Assembly: GCF_003019035.1 (NCBI RefSeq)
Contig: NZ_CP027447.1
Length of the DNA: 64,000 bases
Direction: 5' to 3' (one strand)
DNA from: Escherichia coli
GTDB taxonomy: Bacteria; Pseudomonadota; Gammaproteobacteria; Enterobacterales; Enterobacteriaceae
The translations under genes were made by a program, and so were the position numbers. Under the pieces are notes generated by a model, which did no database searches, was not told the origin of the DNA, and was given only the letters and a program-made list of their open reading frames with translations. Below are positions 2,614-8,369 of this stretch, one piece after another (positions within the stretch are counted from its first letter, which is position 1; every line of letters starts with the position of its first letter).

Positions 2614-3423
2614 TCACCCCTGCAATATTTTGTCCATCACGCGCCCCGGCAGCAGGCGCTTAAGCACCATTACCGCCCAGGTCACCAGCGTTACCGGATA
2701 GCGCATCTTCGGCTTCTCGCTAATAAAAGCATGGCGCACTTTGCCGACCACCGCTTCCGGTCCCAACGTAAAGCGGGCGGCGATGCCGGGATTTTCGACT
2801 GGTTTATCACTTTGCGTCTGGTTGACGTTGTCGGTGAAGCGAGTACGAATGGGACCAGGTTCGATCAGGCTAACTTTAATTCCGCTGTGACGTAGCTCCA
2901 TGCGCAGTGCGTCTGACCACGCCTCCAGCGCATATTTACTGGCCGCGTAAGCGCCACGACCCGGCGTGGAGATTAATCCCATCACCGATGAGGTCATCAC
3001 AATACGTCCTTCACCGTGCGGTAACATCGCGGGTAACAGGCGCATGGTGAGCTGGTGTGCGCCGAAAAAGTTGGCGGAAAACTGCTGTTCCATCTGCACA
3101 CGGCTGATGGTGGAAAGGGGGCCATACATGCCGAATCCGGCATTGTTAAAGATCCCATACAGACAATTATCGGTCAGGGCGATCACTTCGTCGGCTGCGC
3201 GATCAACACTTTCTGGTGAATCCAGATCGATCAACACGCCGGTAAATCCCATGCTGTTCATGCGCTCAACATCATCCGCTTTCCGGCAACCTGCCAGCAC
3301 ATGAAAACCCTGGCGTTTTAATTCGAGCGCGCTTTCCAGGCCAATTCCACTGGAACATCCGGTAATTAAGACCGATTTTTGCATAACTTTACCTGTCAGG
3401 ATCTCCGTTGCTTTATGAGTCAT
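2614..3423 (-). CDS. ybbO: Short-chain dehydrogenase/reductase YbbO
   Basis: 269-aa ORF with SDR glycine motif TGCSSGIG and YxxxK active-site pattern. Confidence 0.85.
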   Translation of the reverse strand: MTHKATEILTGKVMQKSVLITGCSSGIGLESALELKRQGFHVLAGCRKADDVERMNSMGFTGVLIDLDSPESVDRAADEVIALTDNCLYGIFNNAGFGMYGPLSTISRVQMEQQFSANFFGAHQLTMRLLPAMLPHGEGRIVMTSSVMGLISTPGRGAYAASKYALEAWSDALRMELRHSGIKVSLIEPGPIRTRFTDNVNQTQSDKPVENPGIAARFTLGPEAVVGKVRHAFISEKPKMRYPVTLVTWAVMVLKRLLPGRVMDKILQG

Positions 3424-4039
3424 GATTTACTAAAGGCTGCAACTGCTTCGCCATCCAGTCGGCAATAAACGGCTGGGCGTCGCGGTTGGGATGAATACCG
3501 TCATCCTGCATCCATTGTGGTTTGAGGTAGACCTCTTCCATAAAAAAGGGCAGCAGCGGAACATCAAACTCTTTGGCGAGTTTGGGGTAAATGGCGCTAA
3601 AGGCTTCATTATAACGGCGACCATAGTTTGCAGGCAGACGTATTTGCATTAACAATGGTTCAGCGTTGGCGGCTTTGACATCCTGCAAAATCTGGCGCAG
3701 CGTTTGCTCGGTTTGTTGTGGCTGAAAACCACGCAAACCGTCATTGCCGCCCAGTTCAACCAGCACCCAACGCGGCTGATGCTGTTTCAGCAGAGCCGGA
3801 AGGCGCGCCAGCCCTTGTTGCGAGGTGTCGCCGCTGATGCTGGCATTGACTACCGACGTTTTACTCTGCCACTTATCATTCAACAAGGCAGGCCAGGCCG
3901 CGCTGGCAGACATTCGATACCCGGCGCTCAGGCTATCACCCAGAATCAATAACGTGTCCGCTGCGGCGGCACGGAAGGTTAACAGGACCAGGAACAGGAA
4001 GGGCAAATGCCAGCGGAAAACATTGTTGAAGTTCATCAT
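3413..4039 (-). CDS. tesA: Periplasmic thioesterase I / lysophospholipase L1 TesA (SGNH hydrolase)
   Basis: ORF track 3413..4069; GDSLSAG catalytic motif; start trimmed to MMNFNN giving 208 aa. Confidence 0.85.
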   Translation of the reverse strand: MMNFNNVFRWHLPFLFLVLLTFRAAAADTLLILGDSLSAGYRMSASAAWPALLNDKWQSKTSVVNASISGDTSQQGLARLPALLKQHQPRWVLVELGGNDGLRGFQPQQTEQTLRQILQDVKAANAEPLLMQIRLPANYGRRYNEAFSAIYPKLAKEFDVPLLPFFMEEVYLKPQWMQDDGIHPNRDAQPFIADWMAKQLQPLVNHDS

Positions 4040-4693
4040 CTTAAGAAGTCCGTCGGTCAGGGGGAGCATGAACTCTCCATCCTCACCGGAGTTGAGCTGG
4101 TTGTCAAACGTGGCGAGACCATCGCACTGGTGGGCGAGTCGGGATCGGGTAAGTCAACCTTGCTGGCGATCCTCGCCGGGCTGGATGACGGCAGCAGTGG
4201 CGAAGTGAGTCTGGTGGGACAACCGCTACATAATATGGACGAAGAAGCGCGGGCAAAGTTGCGCGCGAAGCACGTAGGCTTTGTTTTTCAGTCATTTATG
4301 TTAATTCCTACCCTTAACGCGCTGGAAAACGTCGAGCTTCCGGCGCTGCTGCGTGGTGAGAGTAGCGCAGAAAGTCGTAACGGGGCAAAAGCGTTGCTCG
4401 AACAGTTAGGACTGGGTAAACGTCTGGATCATCTTCCGGCACAGCTTTCCGGCGGCGAACAGCAACGAGTGGCGCTGGCGCGAGCTTTTAATGGTCGGCC
4501 TGATGTGCTGTTTGCCGACGAACCCACCGGCAATCTTGACCGCCAGACGGGCGATAAAATTGCCGACCTGCTGTTTTCCCTCAACCGTGAACATGGCACC
4601 ACGTTGATTATGGTGACCCACGACCTGCAACTGGCGGCACGCTGCGACCGCTGCTTACGGCTGGTGAACGGGCAGTTGCAGGAGGAAGCATGA
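4007..4693 (+). CDS. ybbA: ABC transporter ATP-binding protein YbbA
   Basis: 228-aa ORF with Walker A GESGSGKST and LSGGEQQR signature; stop overlaps ybbP start. Confidence 0.9.
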   Translation: MPAENIVEVHHLKKSVGQGEHELSILTGVELVVKRGETIALVGESGSGKSTLLAILAGLDDGSSGEVSLVGQPLHNMDEEARAKLRAKHVGFVFQSFMLIPTLNALENVELPALLRGESSAESRNGAKALLEQLGLGKRLDHLPAQLSGGEQQRVALARAFNGRPDVLFADEPTGNLDRQTGDKIADLLFSLNREHGTTLIMVTHDLQLAARCDRCLRLVNGQLQEEA

Positions 4694-7104
4694 TTGCACG
4701 TTGGTTCTGGCGCGAATGGCGCTCGCCGTCGCTATTAATTGTCTGGCTGGCGCTAAGCCTGGCGGTGGCCTGCGTGCTGGCGCTGGGCAATATCAGCGAT
4801 CGCATGGAGAAGGGCTTAAGCCAGCAAAGCCGGGAGTTTATGGCGGGCGATCGGGCGTTGCGCAGTTCGCGCGAAGTGCCGCAAGCGTGGCTGGAGGAAG
4901 CGCAAAAGCGCGGCCTGAAAGTCGGCAAGCAGCTGACTTTCGCCACCATGACATTTGCAGGCGACACACCGCAGCTGGCGAACGTCAAAGCGGTGGATGA
5001 TATCTACCCGATGTATGGCGATCTGCAAACCAATCCCCCAGGCCTGAAACCGCAGGCGGGCAGCGTATTGCTGGCCCCACGCCTGATGGCACTGCTTAAC
5101 CTGAAAACGGGCGACACCATTGACGTGGGCGATGCCACCTTGCGGATTGCCGGAGAAGTGATTCAGGAACCGGATTCCGGTTTTAACCCCTTCCAGATGG
5201 CTCCGCGTCTGATGATGAATCTGGCGGATGTCGATAAAACCGGAGCCGTGCAGCCGGGGAGTCGGGTCACCTGGCGTTATAAATTCGGCGGCAACGAGAA
5301 CCAGCTCGACGGCTATGAGAAATGGTTGTTACCCCAGCTTAAACCCGAACAACGCTGGTACGGTCTGGAACAGGACGAAGGCGCGCTGGGGCGATCGATG
5401 GAACGCTCGCAGCAGTTCCTGCTGCTTTCGGCGCTTCTGACCTTGCTGCTGGCAGTGGCAGCGGTGGCGGTGGCGATGAATCATTACTGTCGCAGTCGCT
5501 ACGATCTGGTGGCGATCCTCAAAACGCTGGGGGCAGGGCGAGCGCAACTGCGTAAGCTAATCGTCGGTCAGTGGTTGATGGTGCTGACGCTTTCAGCCGT
5601 TACCGGTGGGGCGATAGGCCTGTTGTTCGAAAACGTGTTGATGGTGCTGCTCAAGCCCGTTCTGCCTGCTGCACTACCGCCAGCCAGCCTCTGGCCGTGG
5701 CTATGGGCGCTGGGCACCATGACGGTTATCTCGCTGCTGGTGGGGCTACGACCATACCGCTTGTTGCTGGCAACGCAGCCTTTACGCGTATTACGTAATG
5801 ATGTGGTAGCGAACGTCTGGCCGCTGAAGTTTTATCTGCCGATTGTCAGTGTAGTGGTTGTGCTGCTGCTCGCCGGATTAATGGGTGGCAGCATGCTGCT
5901 TTGGGCGGTGCTGACGGGCGCGGTAGTACTGGCTTTGCTGTGCGGTGTGCTGGGCTGGATGCTGCTGAATGTACTTCGCCGCATGACGCTGAAATCGCTA
6001 CCTCTGCGCCTGGCGGTTAGCCGCCTGTTACGTCAGCCGTGCTCAACGTTAAGCCAGCTTTCGGCATTTTCGCTCTCCTTTATGCTGCTGGCACTGCTGC
6101 TGGTGTTGCGTGGCGATCTGCTCGACCGCTGGCAGCAGCAGCTACCGCCAGAAAGCCCGAACTACTTTTTAATTAACATCGCCACAGAACAGGTAGCACC
6201 GCTAAAAGCGTTCCTCGCGGAACATCAGATAGTCCCGGAATCGTTTTATCCGGTGGTGCGGGCGAGACTGACGGCGATTAACGGCAAGCCGACAGAAGGC
6301 AATGAAGATGAGGCGCTCAATCGCGAACTCAATCTTACCTGGCAAAATACGCGGCCCGATCATAATCCGATTGTCGCCGGTAACTGGCCGCCAAAAGCCG
6401 ATGAAGTGTCGATGGAAGAGGGGCTGGCGAAACGCTTAAACGTTGCCCTCGGTGATACCGTGACTTTTATGGGCGATACCCAGGAGTTCCGCGCTAAAGT
6501 GACCAGCCTGCGCAAAGTGGACTGGGAAAGTCTGCGGCCTAATTTCTATTTTATTTTCCCTGAAGGGGCATTAGACGGGCAACCGCAGAGCTGGCTTACC
6601 AGTTTCCGCTGGGAGAATGGCAACGGCATGTTGACGCAACTCAACCGCCAGTTCCCTACCATTAGCCTGTTAGACATTGGCGCGATTTTAAAACAGGTCG
6701 GTCAGGTGCTGGAGCAGGTAAGTCGGGCGCTGGAGGTGATGGTGGTGCTGGTCACCGCCTGCGGTATGTTGCTGTTGCTGGCACAGGTGCAGGTGGGAAT
6801 GCGTCAGCGTCATCAGGAGCTGGTGGTGTGGCGCACACTCGGTGCGGGGAAAAAGCTGCTGCGCACGACATTGTGGTGTGAGTTCGCCATGCTCGGGTTT
6901 GTTTCTGGCCTGGTGGCCGCAATTGGTGCGGAAACGGCGCTGGCAGTGTTGCAGGCGAAAGTGTTTGATTTTCCGTGGGAGCCAGACTGGCGATTGTGGA
7001 TTGTGCTGCCGTGCAGCGGTGCACTGCTGCTGTCGCTTTTCGGCGGCTGGCTGGGTGCGCGACTGGTTAAGGGTAAGGCGCTGTTCAGGCAGTTTGCGGG
7101 ATGA
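4690..7104 (+). CDS. ybbP: FtsX-like ABC transporter permease YbbP
   Basis: 804-aa polytopic membrane ORF, translationally coupled to ybbA. Confidence 0.9.
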   Translation: MIARWFWREWRSPSLLIVWLALSLAVACVLALGNISDRMEKGLSQQSREFMAGDRALRSSREVPQAWLEEAQKRGLKVGKQLTFATMTFAGDTPQLANVKAVDDIYPMYGDLQTNPPGLKPQAGSVLLAPRLMALLNLKTGDTIDVGDATLRIAGEVIQEPDSGFNPFQMAPRLMMNLADVDKTGAVQPGSRVTWRYKFGGNENQLDGYEKWLLPQLKPEQRWYGLEQDEGALGRSMERSQQFLLLSALLTLLLAVAAVAVAMNHYCRSRYDLVAILKTLGAGRAQLRKLIVGQWLMVLTLSAVTGGAIGLLFENVLMVLLKPVLPAALPPASLWPWLWALGTMTVISLLVGLRPYRLLLATQPLRVLRNDVVANVWPLKFYLPIVSVVVVLLLAGLMGGSMLLWAVLTGAVVLALLCGVLGWMLLNVLRRMTLKSLPLRLAVSRLLRQPCSTLSQLSAFSLSFMLLALLLVLRGDLLDRWQQQLPPESPNYFLINIATEQVAPLKAFLAEHQIVPESFYPVVRARLTAINGKPTEGNEDEALNRELNLTWQNTRPDHNPIVAGNWPPKADEVSMEEGLAKRLNVALGDTVTFMGDTQEFRAKVTSLRKVDWESLRPNFYFIFPEGALDGQPQSWLTSFRWENGNGMLTQLNRQFPTISLLDIGAILKQVGQVLEQVSRALEVMVVLVTACGMLLLLAQVQVGMRQRHQELVVWRTLGAGKKLLRTTLWCEFAMLGFVSGLVAAIGAETALAVLQAKVFDFPWEPDWRLWIVLPCSGALLLSLFGGWLGARLVKGKALFRQFAG

Positions 7105-7120
7105 TGACAGGCGTTAGATT

Positions 7121-8369
<1,249 letters not shown>

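Follow-up and report, generated by a model that had tools for sequence, protein, structure and literature searches.

The concept of the excludon is said to go back to Sesto et al. in 2013 and reportedly came from Listeria. Face-to-face promoters are exemplified by pR and pL of coliphage 186, where the aggressive promoter is strong and the interference has been measured. In Escherichia coli MG1655, 16 divergent excludons have been called, and tesA-ybbA was listed among them in 2025 purely on the basis of overlapping RNA-seq coverage, overlapping transcription being present in at least 50% of 58 RNA-seq samples (PMC12288877). At the level of coding sequences, divergent overlaps account for 2 of 663 overlapping pairs in E. 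coli (PMC4161906), and tesA/ybbA belongs to this same very small class. The title and abstract of PMC2478687 treat many long or divergent overlaps as suspected mispredictions of start sites. The overlap between tesA and ybbA is itself already known, from the reference annotation, a public table of transcription start sites (TSSs) from 2012, the published excludon list, and the 2025 paper on the YbbAP-TesA structure, which mentions the overlapping operons (PMC12646458). In the paper on the DGF-298 genome, the mention is a deletion list only. Here, we investigated the initiation codons, promoters, and conservation of this locus in a window of 64,000 nucleotides from E. coli, that is, the whole stretch of DNA analyzed.

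Architecture of the tesA/ybbA Locus

The window was 100% identical to strain SCU-301 and differed from K-12 at just 2 positions in 3807-4136. Based on the ORF list, the K-12 and PGAP annotations, and homologues, tesA occupies 3413..4039 on the minus strand (208 aa by the K-12 start) and encodes the periplasmic thioesterase I/protease I/lysophospholipase L1; its 208-aa frame from ATG 4039 is nested in a minus-strand ORF extending over 3413..4069. The gene ybbA, which encodes the ATP-binding subunit of the YbbAP type VII ABC transporter, occupies 4007..4693 on the plus strand (228 aa) and is annotated alike in K-12 and SCU-301. There is no intergenic region between them. The two coding sequences overlap head to head on both strands over 33 bp (4007..4039), or over 30 bp with a TesA start at 4036, the second ATG from which the PGAP annotation of SCU-301 begins the gene. 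A preliminary description of this DNA had placed the tesA start (4039) inside ybbA (start 4007) with a 33-bp overlap of the 5′ ends; these coordinates are correct and match the K-12 RefSeq annotation, in which tesA at 519139..519765 and ybbA at 519733..520419 also share 33 bp. The antisense register is exact: the tesA codons for M1 M2 N F N N V F R W H are, in that order, reverse complements of those for ybbA H11 H10 V E V I N E A P M1.

The start of ybbO (2614..3423, minus strand), the downstream partner of tesA in the tesA-ybbO operon (PMC12646458), shares 11 bp with the end of tesA, and the start of ybbP (4690..7104, plus strand), which encodes the membrane subunit, overlaps the ybbA stop (ATGA). 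Both frames of the overlap correspond to real proteins, for each of which structures have been solved (including the complex 9GE8) and homologues number in the thousands. Moreover, TesA and YbbAP are constituents of one complex, YbbA2-YbbP-TesA, with a 2:1:1 stoichiometry. No known RNA family in Rfam was matched within 3000-5000.

Initiation Codons

The start codons were compared in 19 aligned Enterobacterales sequences (18 species and the window), while Salmonella, Klebsiella, and the metagenome contig L085 were checked apart; because these species share ancestry, the counts given below are not independent. Judged from these comparisons, TesA is most likely initiated at ATG 4039 or 4036 and YbbA at ATG 4007. 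For YbbA, ATG 4007 is the first and the sole start codon of the ORF upstream of the first beta-strand, the cryo-EM construct (9GE6-8) begins with MPAEN, and the predicted N-terminal peptide reads MPAENIVEVHHLK. A Shine-Dalgarno region, AGGAAGG (3996..4002, plus strand; duplex energy -7.0 kcal/mol), lies antisense within the tesA signal-peptide codons 13-15 (P-F-L), which specify part of the hydrophobic core, and its sequence core (C/A/T)AGGAA was kept in 18 of the 19 sequences.

For TesA, the first ATG was present in 14 and the second (4034..4036, minus strand; the PGAP start, giving 207 aa) in 17 of the 19 aligned sequences, one or both being found in all 19; Salmonella has the second ATG alone. 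The ybbA histidine codons 10 and 11, which lie opposite these two ATGs, were CAT in 31 cases and CAC in none, compared with a CAT:CAC ratio of 94:49 elsewhere.

The preliminary description had reasoned that initiation of either protein at a downstream start would remove the overlap. Such a codon does exist in tesA: TTG at Leu12 (4004..4006, minus strand) directly abuts the ybbA ATG, and if TesA began there, the coding overlap would be an annotation artefact, with the transcripts still overlapping. This TTG is in frame and within the mapped tesA mRNA, its geometry permits a minimal signal peptide, and the equivalent start is used in many automated annotations, which give proteins of 197 or 194 aa (in Klebsiella, KPN_00472 comprises 594 nt). 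Nevertheless, it lacks a Shine-Dalgarno sequence (-1.5 kcal/mol), and a start codon (ATG, GTG, or TTG) is missing at its position in L085 and in 10 of the 19 aligned sequences, namely C. werkmanii, Erwinia, Pantoea, Rahnella, Acerihabitans, two Photorhabdus, Proteus, Providencia, and Pectobacterium. An ATG at tesA codon 1 or 2 is, by comparison, universally kept, and the matching ybbA codons are never CAC. The comparative data thus argue against the use of TTG 4006, which we judged not to be the real start, and the artefact is an explanation that we find hardly credible.

The signal peptide bears on the same point. Residues 1-26 of TesA (3962..4039, minus strand) could be divided, from the translation, into an n-region, an h-region, and an AAA cleavage motif. 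By inspection they have the properties of a Sec-type signal peptide, with the n-region MMNFNNVFRWH (containing Arg9), the h-region LPFLFLVLLTF, and cleavage within RAAA/A. In the PDB, TesA chains start with ADTLL at residue 27, in agreement with a signal peptide of 26 residues. Initiation at TTG 4006 would leave 15 residues of signal peptide and, also by inspection, no positively charged n-region, Arg9 being lost. Because the signal peptide is cleaved, mature TesA is uninformative on the initiation codon.

Conservation of the Overlap

An overlap geometry of 30-33 bp was found in 19 of 19 aligned Enterobacterales sequences, as well as in Salmonella, Klebsiella, and L085; the overlap in Pectobacterium measured 51-78 bp. 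Synonymous variation in ybbA was 0.045 in codons 2-11, 0.204 in codons 12-21, and 0.094 in codons 27-34, against a background median of 0.393. In tesA, codons 3-11 gave 0.053 against the same median, although the conservation seen in tesA codons 1-11 cannot be separated from ybbA coding or from constraints common to 5′ ends. None of the approximately 336 background windows of both genes was as low in synonymous variation as the overlap. Within E. coli, the 112-bp core (3996-4107) was at least 99% identical in all 5417 genomes with a match, and the whole 1281-bp region was 95-99% identical in 5033 of 5418 matched records. On these comparative grounds, the overlap is genuine and conserved and not an annotation artefact, because ybbA has one possible start, about half of the relatives lack a downstream codon at which tesA could begin clear of ybbA, and the synonymous sites of ybbA codons 2-11 are near-frozen.

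Promoters and Transcripts

We found that the promoter of tesA lies inside ybbA. When the K-12 map is transferred to the window, the tesA TSS falls at 4071 (minus strand), inside ybbA codon 22; it corresponds to NC_000913.2 519021 (-), with 45 reads and a 5′UTR of 32 nt (Kim et al. 2012, PMC3415461, supplementary file 2), and the 51 nt upstream of it in K-12 are identical in the window. The -10 element GAGGAT (4079..4084, minus strand), which reads AAGGAT in many relatives, lies 8 nt upstream of the mapped TSS and antisense to ybbA codons 25-26; the -35 element TTGACA (4102..4107, minus strand) is a perfect consensus, separated from the -10 by a 17-nt spacer and antisense to ybbA codons 32-34. 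With 6 of 6 consensus positions in the -35, a 17-nt spacer, 3 of 6 in the -10 (A2 and T6 among them), and the TSS 8 nt downstream, TTGACA-N17-GAGGAT has the features of a sigma-70 promoter, and it sits wholly in ybbA codons 25-34. The -35 was TTGACA in 15 and TCGACA in 4 of the 19 aligned sequences and was kept in Salmonella, Klebsiella, and L085. This element had been predicted from the conservation of ybbA synonymous sites (codons 32-34) before the TSS table was consulted, and the upstream sequence given by Kim et al. (2012) contains it. A simple consensus scan of 3700-4400 called no promoter, that of tesA included; the -10 is weak, and the promoter was found just through synonymous-site conservation and the published TSS.

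The TSS also bears on a further in-frame ATG upstream (4067..4069, minus strand), which would give a protein of 218 aa and an overlap of 63 bp. It was first suspected to be the true start for the strong GGAGAG before it (-8.4 kcal/mol), and TesA might be made wholly or partly from it, on a near-leaderless mRNA and with a signal peptide of 36 residues. In E. coli no stop codon intervenes, the mature protein would be unaltered, and 13 of the 19 aligned sequences retain the codon; the opposite ybbA His21 is CAT in 13 cases and CAC in 1. The mapped TSS leaves just 2 nt before this ATG, so that the codon lies close to the 5′ end of the mRNA, but for the same reason GGAGAG is not part of the tesA mRNA. 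In E. coli, leaderless mRNAs are initiated most efficiently when the AUG stands at the extreme 5′ end, which we counted against this start. Moreover, the ATG is missing in 6 of the 19 sequences (Citrobacter sp. FP75, Rahnella, Acerihabitans, two Photorhabdus, and Proteus), a stop codon immediately before the MM start closes the frame in Rahnella and Proteus, and the third positions of ybbA codons 13, 14, 19, and 20 vary freely. With either the ATG or the open frame absent from several genera, ATG 4069 was rejected as the main start, and we consider the longer overlap very unlikely. The supplements of TetRP, TRAINSPOTTER, and SMRT-Cappable-seq had no entries for tesA or ybbA, and the text of the Ribo-RET preprint does not mention these genes.

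The starts mapped for ybbA, all on the plus strand, lie inside tesA and are weak. Two of them, at 3852 (518802 (+), 155-nt leader, near noise) and at 3620 (518570 (+), 387-nt leader), rest on 2 reads each in the table of Kim et al. (2012), and the third, at 3665 (518615 (+), 342 nt upstream of ybbA), has a near-threshold Cappable-seq score of 2.45 (PMC4782308, supplementary file 1). No further plus-strand start is present in the Cappable-seq table up to 523635. When a conserved ybbA promoter was sought as a dip in the synonymous variation of tesA, none was seen beyond codon 15 apart from a small dip at codons 54-60, where the hexamers were unconvincing.

Thus, the published K-12 maps, which the preliminary description had proposed as a check, place each TSS within the other gene, and the promoters face each other and are not arranged back to back in an intergenic region. 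The description of promoters and first codons as interleaved was borne out, since the promoter and TSS of tesA lie in ybbA and the Shine-Dalgarno sequence and mapped starts of ybbA lie in tesA. For the transcriptional interference or shared regulation that the same description took this to imply, the literature examined yielded no demonstration specific to this pair. The two mRNAs are complementary over at least approximately 220 nt (3852-4071), a stretch spanning both ribosome-binding sites and both start codons.

Probable Origin and Possible Regulatory Meaning of the Overlap

We think it probable that several elements together account for this layout: a real and conserved overlap, with the tesA promoter and the ybbA ribosome-binding site embedded in it, that reflects mainly linkage and compaction and is accompanied by an asymmetric antagonism of modest effect. 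The layout would mainly be a product of close physical linkage and of compaction in a pair of partners inherited together, and signals embedded in the coding sequence of the partner would then make it hard to undo. Any regulatory effect would be asymmetric and antagonistic, and not co-activating. The stronger tesA promoter would fire through the initiation region of ybbA, and tesA RNA could pair with the ybbA mRNA, with the outcome that TesA would be favored over YbbAP. This effect is probably modest because both promoters are weak.

A stronger regulatory role would be that of a functional excludon, in which the overlap was selected to make the expression of tesA-ybbO and ybbAP mutually exclusive, through collision of RNA polymerases and cutting of the 5′ duplex by RNase III. 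The locus has the overlapping opposite-strand transcripts of an excludon, as seen both in the published TSSs and in the ExcludonFinder listing, and its facing promoters, the extent of complementarity, and the conserved close spacing of the two genes are in line with such a role. Divergent 5′ overlaps, moreover, yield more RNase III-generated dsRNA than any other source in E. coli (PMC7373196, in which tesA and ybbA are unmentioned). However, the opposing or alternative gene functions of an excludon were not found here; products that form one 2:1:1 complex should be needed together, which is the opposite of classical excludon logic. In addition, an excludon call is near-automatic for a pair with overlapping coding sequences, and collisions should be rare with promoters as weak as these (45 and 2 reads). 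Mutual exclusion as the selected function is therefore an unlikely reading.

Alternatively, one regulator bound in the shared region might control both units, and the overlap would serve the co-regulation of partners. To our knowledge, no regulator or binding site is known for the tesA/ybbA pair, and none was encountered in the literature examined. The partners are functionally linked, and the structure paper calls them "possibly co-regulated" (PMC12646458). The sole candidate for a shared operator is an imperfect inverted repeat, ACCGG-N7-CTGGT, which fills the spacer of the tesA promoter (4085-4101) and coincides with conserved synonymous sites of ybbA. Photorhabdus, Proteus, and Providencia have lost this repeat, though, and the conservation of the spacer could be explained by promoter geometry or by features of the YbbA mRNA. 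Furthermore, the TSSs face each other and do not stand back to back round a common operator. Shared regulation thus appears quite unlikely, and the combination of linkage, compaction, and modest asymmetric antagonism is preferred.

Spacing across Gammaproteobacteria

Among 76 loci, 21 had a forced overlap, and 45 (those 21 included) had starts that overlapped or were at most 20 bp apart. In Vibrionaceae, the starts of tesA and ybbA share CATG, a 2-bp overlap; in Pseudoalteromonas, they adjoin as CATATG; and in Pseudomonas asuensis, the spacer is 11 nt. Vibrionaceae served as a control for the longer overlap. With 2 bp shared, synonymous variation was unsuppressed at the 5′ end of tesA and was suppressed in ybbA over the first 7 codons only. 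The near-zero spacing of tesA and ybbA across Gammaproteobacteria is unreported in the literature examined and is possibly new.

We tentatively raise the doubtful possibility that this near-zero spacing, from the in-register overlap of 30-33 bp in Enterobacterales through the CATG of Vibrionaceae to the 0-11 nt of Pseudoalteromonas and Pseudomonas, is a selected cis-acting coupling device. If this were true, the spacing would set the ratio or the timing of a periplasmic hydrolase and its ABC transporter, through mutual antisense masking of ribosome-binding sites or through promoter occlusion. The alternative is that the spacing is a frozen by-product of compaction. The conserved spacing offers a simple handle on the cis coupling of a transporter and its periplasmic partner.

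Comparison with Known Systems

The tesA/ybbA pair is a clean and well-supported case of the least common type of overlap between bacterial genes, and therefore gene callers that impose a non-overlapping TTG or GTG start on tesA are probably wrong. The layout also matters for strain construction. Deleting or recoding tesA, which is routine in fatty-acid engineering, also removes the ribosome-binding site and the upstream transcripts of ybbA, and edits in the first 35 codons of ybbA strike the tesA promoter.

The closest described system is the same locus in K-12 (tesA, b0494; ybbA, b0495), which has the 33-bp overlap in identical register and tesA-ybbO divergent from ybbA-ybbP; the window represents another strain, in which the PGAP start of tesA lies 3 bp later and the overlap is 30 bp. 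The structure paper contains no analysis of start codons, promoter position, or conservation of spacing (PMC12646458). Like pR and pL of coliphage 186, the two promoters are unequal in strength and face each other across a short common segment, but unlike them both are weak and the interference is a proposed one. The pair resembles the divergent excludons, on whose E. coli list it stands (PMC12288877), in being opposite-strand neighbors with transcripts overlapping at their 5′ ends. It differs from classical excludons, which have opposing functions and a long 5′UTR across a real intergenic region, whereas in this pair the overlap extends to the coding sequences, the products are partners in one complex, and antagonism is only a proposal. 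Finally, unlike the suspected start-site mispredictions described in the title and abstract of PMC2478687, the overlap of tesA and ybbA survives comparative testing.

Geometry of the tesA/ybbA Overlap

The ORFs of tesA (3413..4069 from its first ATG, minus strand, giving a 208-aa TesA when the start is ATG 4039) and ybbA (4007..4693, plus strand, 228-aa YbbA) are divergent within positions 3413-4693. The preliminary description had reported a 33-bp overlap at their 5' ends, and this observation is confirmed, as the K-12 RefSeq annotation (tesA 519139..519765, ybbA 519733..520419) shows exactly the same overlap. In the PGAP annotation of strain SCU-301, whose sequence is identical, tesA begins at the next ATG (window 4036) and the overlap is 30 bp. 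Reverse-complementing the ybbA codons ATG CCA GCG GAA AAC ATT GTT GAA GTT CAT CAT yields the tesA codons ATG ATG AAC TTC AAC AAT GTT TTC CGC TGG CAT, so that both reading frames are in exact antisense register. Thus, TesA His11 lies opposite the ybbA start codon, and YbbA His11 and His10 lie opposite the two ATGs of tesA.

The region 3413-4693 was matched in 5418 of 5426 complete E. coli genomes, with 100% identity to SCU-301. Immediately downstream of ybbP, positions 7340-8320 encode an IS621 (IS110-family) transposase, so the window is not K-12, although the preliminary description spoke of the K-12 region. The tesA stop and ybbO start overlap by 11 bp on the minus strand (3413-3423), and the ybbA stop and ybbP start overlap as ATGA (4690-4693). 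Both operons are thus internally compact as well, in a pattern typical of translational coupling.

Start Codons

The ybbA start codon is ATG 4007, without alternative. It is the sole ATG, GTG, or TTG from the upstream stop to the first beta-strand of the ATPase, it follows a reasonable Shine-Dalgarno sequence (AGGAAGG, -7.0 kcal/mol), and every enterobacterial relative has this sole candidate 42 codons ahead of the Walker A glycine. The YbbA cryo-EM construct begins MPAEN.

For tesA there are three candidates: the annotated pair ATG 4039/4036, TTG 4006, and an upstream ATG at 4069. Automated annotations in protein databases use all three (194/197, 204/207/208, and 218-220 aa). TesA PDB chains begin at residue 27, which fits a signal peptide of 26 residues when numbering starts at ATG 4039. 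At the positions of tesA codons 1 and 2, the codon for YbbA histidine is CAT 31 times and CAC not once; in the rest of the two genes, the CAT:CAC ratio is 94:49.

Initiation at TTG 4006 (Leu12) would let the genes abut without overlap, but of the 19 Enterobacterales sequences in the alignment (the window and 18 species), 10 carry neither TTG nor GTG at tesA codon 12: Citrobacter werkmanii, Erwinia, Pantoea, Rahnella, Acerihabitans, two Photorhabdus, Proteus, and Providencia, plus Pectobacterium. It is also missing in a metagenome contig fetched separately (L085). The overlap is therefore forced in these sequences, and we consider a TTG 4006 start most improbable. The in-frame ATG 4069, preceded by GGAGAG, would extend the overlap to 63 bp. 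However, it lies only 2 nt from the tesA mRNA 5' end, with GGAGAG outside the transcript; it is absent in 6 of the 19 sequences (Citrobacter sp. FP75, Rahnella, Acerihabitans, two Photorhabdus, and Proteus), and in Rahnella and Proteus a stop codon directly precedes the tesA MM start. Given the untranscribed GGAGAG and the 2-nt leader, ATG 4069 is unlikely as the main start, but may make a minor, near-leaderless contribution to TesA.

Synonymous-Site Constraint

The codons of the 19 Enterobacterales sequences were aligned under guidance of the proteins, and each position was scored by the fraction of sequences that encode the majority amino acid with a codon other than the majority one. The gene-wide mean was 0.37 for both ybbA and tesA, and background windows had a median of 0.393 and a minimum of about 0.18-0.26. 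Four regions were suppressed: ybbA codons 2-11 (0.045), 12-21 (0.204), and 27-34 (0.094), and tesA codons 3-11 (0.053). None of the ~336-340 background windows of the two genes was equally low, although these counts, like the other comparative ones, are descriptive, the species being related and not phylogenetically independent. In Vibrionaceae, where the overlap is 2 bp, the tesA 5' end was unsuppressed and only the first 7 ybbA codons were constrained. This control argues that the extreme freeze seen in Enterobacterales results from dual coding rather than from a generic 5'-end effect. Among E. coli genomes, the 112 bp that run from the ribosome-binding site of ybbA to the -35 of tesA (core 3996-4107) had at least 99% identity in all 5417 genomes matched, while the whole 1281-bp region 3413-4693 reached only 95-99% in 5033 of 5418 matched records.

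Interleaved Expression Signals

The second dip, at ybbA codons 27-34, has the ybbA-strand sequence GTTGTCAAA. Its complement reads as a perfect tesA -35 hexamer, TTGACA (4107..4102, minus strand), followed after 17 nt by a -10, GAGGAT (4084..4079, minus strand). Based on the dip and the hexamers, a tesA start near 4072 was predicted before the published table was consulted. In K-12, a tesA TSS supported by 45 reads was mapped to NC_000913.2 519021 on the minus strand, giving a leader of 32 nt (Kim et al. 2012, PMC3415461, file 2). The sequence upstream of it, TGGTCTCGCCACGTTTGACAACCAGCTCAACTCCGGTGAGGATGGAGAGTT (PMC3415461), is identical in the window and places the TSS at 4071, inside ybbA. 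Thus, the tesA promoter and leader fall wholly within ybbA codons 12-34.

The ybbA Shine-Dalgarno core AGGAA lies in tesA, antisense to the codons for Phe14-Leu15, and 18 of the 19 aligned sequences retain it. Only two ybbA TSSs were reported, 518802 and 518570, with 2 reads each (PMC3415461); they correspond to window 3852 and 3620, both within tesA. In Cappable-seq data, the plus strand has weak starts at 518615, 518388, and 518168, with no other listed in 518616-523634 (PMC4782308). The synonymous-site profile of the 19 sequences showed no visible conserved promoter signature in tesA beyond codon 15. According to the mapped starts, which face each other, complementarity between the two mRNAs extends at least across 3852-4071 (~220 nt), covering both ribosome-binding sites. 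The proposed interleaving of promoters and first codons is thus supported, with the tesA promoter inside ybbA and the ybbA ribosome-binding site inside tesA.

Two further features were noted on the plus strand inside ybbA: a weak TSS at window 4540, assigned to ybbP (519490, NC_000913.2, 3 reads; Kim et al. 2012, PMC3415461), and a terminator-like hairpin with a T-run (4265-4284), which is at chance level (1 found vs. 0.6 expected).

Conservation of Spacing across Relatives

Diverse TesA homologues were aligned, and 80 loci were retrieved from species-representative genomes, spanning Gammaproteobacteria plus one Cupriavidus. In essentially all of them, ybbA was divergent and immediately upstream of tesA. 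As a yardstick, S was defined as the number of nucleotides separating the GDS-glycine codon of TesA from the Walker A glycine codon of YbbA. S was 192 nt in E. coli, where the N-terminal segments of both proteins need 225 nt, 192-195 nt in Enterobacterales (240 nt in Pectobacterium), 193-197 nt in Vibrionaceae, 214-215 nt in Pseudomonas, and 250-330 nt in some other lineages. The pair was well separated in one outlier, Salinicola tamaricis (L067; 748 nt vs. 192-330 nt elsewhere). The E. coli geometry was kept in 19 of 19 aligned Enterobacterales sequences, from Escherichia to Proteus, Providencia, and Photorhabdus, and in the separately fetched Salmonella, Klebsiella, and L085.

Among the 76 loci with usable start candidates, the closest plausible starts overlapped or lay at most 20 bp apart in 45, including 21 with a forced overlap; 15 had a gap of at least 50 bp. 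In Vibrionaceae, both genes share the palindrome CATG, whose central AT is used by both start codons. The junction is CATATG in Pseudoalteromonas, and in Pseudomonas asuensis an 11-nt spacer between the starts bears the tesA Shine-Dalgarno.

Pectobacterium betavasculorum (L015, ~2400-2650) has a 48-bp insertion in the shared region that extends both N-termini, with ybbA starting 57 codons ahead of Walker A and tesA 40-49 codons ahead of GDS, resulting in an overlap of 51-78 bp. In Candidatus Pantoea persica (L021), ybbA contains stop codons and frameshifts and aligns only in fragments, and the match to tesA is truncated, a pattern suggesting that the pair is decaying in a reduced genome.

Regulatory Meaning and Relation to Known Overlaps

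The preliminary description took the overlap to imply interference or shared regulation. The 17-nt tesA promoter spacer (4085-4101) is filled by an imperfect inverted repeat, ACCGG-AGTTGAG-CTGGT, over which synonymous sites of ybbA codons 27-31 are conserved in Enterobacteriaceae and Erwiniaceae, not in Photorhabdus, Proteus, or Providencia. This repeat could be an operator, but the promoters face each other, so co-activation through a shared operator is not expected, and we regard shared regulation via the spacer as unlikely. Any regulatory effect would rather be antagonistic and asymmetric, with tesA (45 reads) dominating ybbA (2 reads); since both promoters are weak, a small effect is expected. 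We suggest that the layout is mainly an outcome of tight linkage and compaction in a gene pair inherited together, whose products associate in a YbbA:YbbP:TesA complex (2:1:1; 2025 PLoS Biology, PMC12646458).

The overlap itself has been annotated and published before. No class of overlap is rarer than the divergent one, which accounts for 2 of the 663 overlapping pairs in E. coli (PMC4161906). In MG1655, tesA-ybbA is one of the 16 divergent excludons listed by ExcludonFinder, whose criterion was that coverage overlapped in half or more of 58 RNA-seq samples (NAR 2025, PMC12288877). This listing would favor an excludon function under selection, but where coding sequences themselves overlap, such a call follows almost automatically, and we find selection for that function rather unlikely. 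Compared with this literature, how deeply the near-zero spacing is conserved and the match of conserved ybbA synonymous sites with the mapped tesA promoter appear to be additions.
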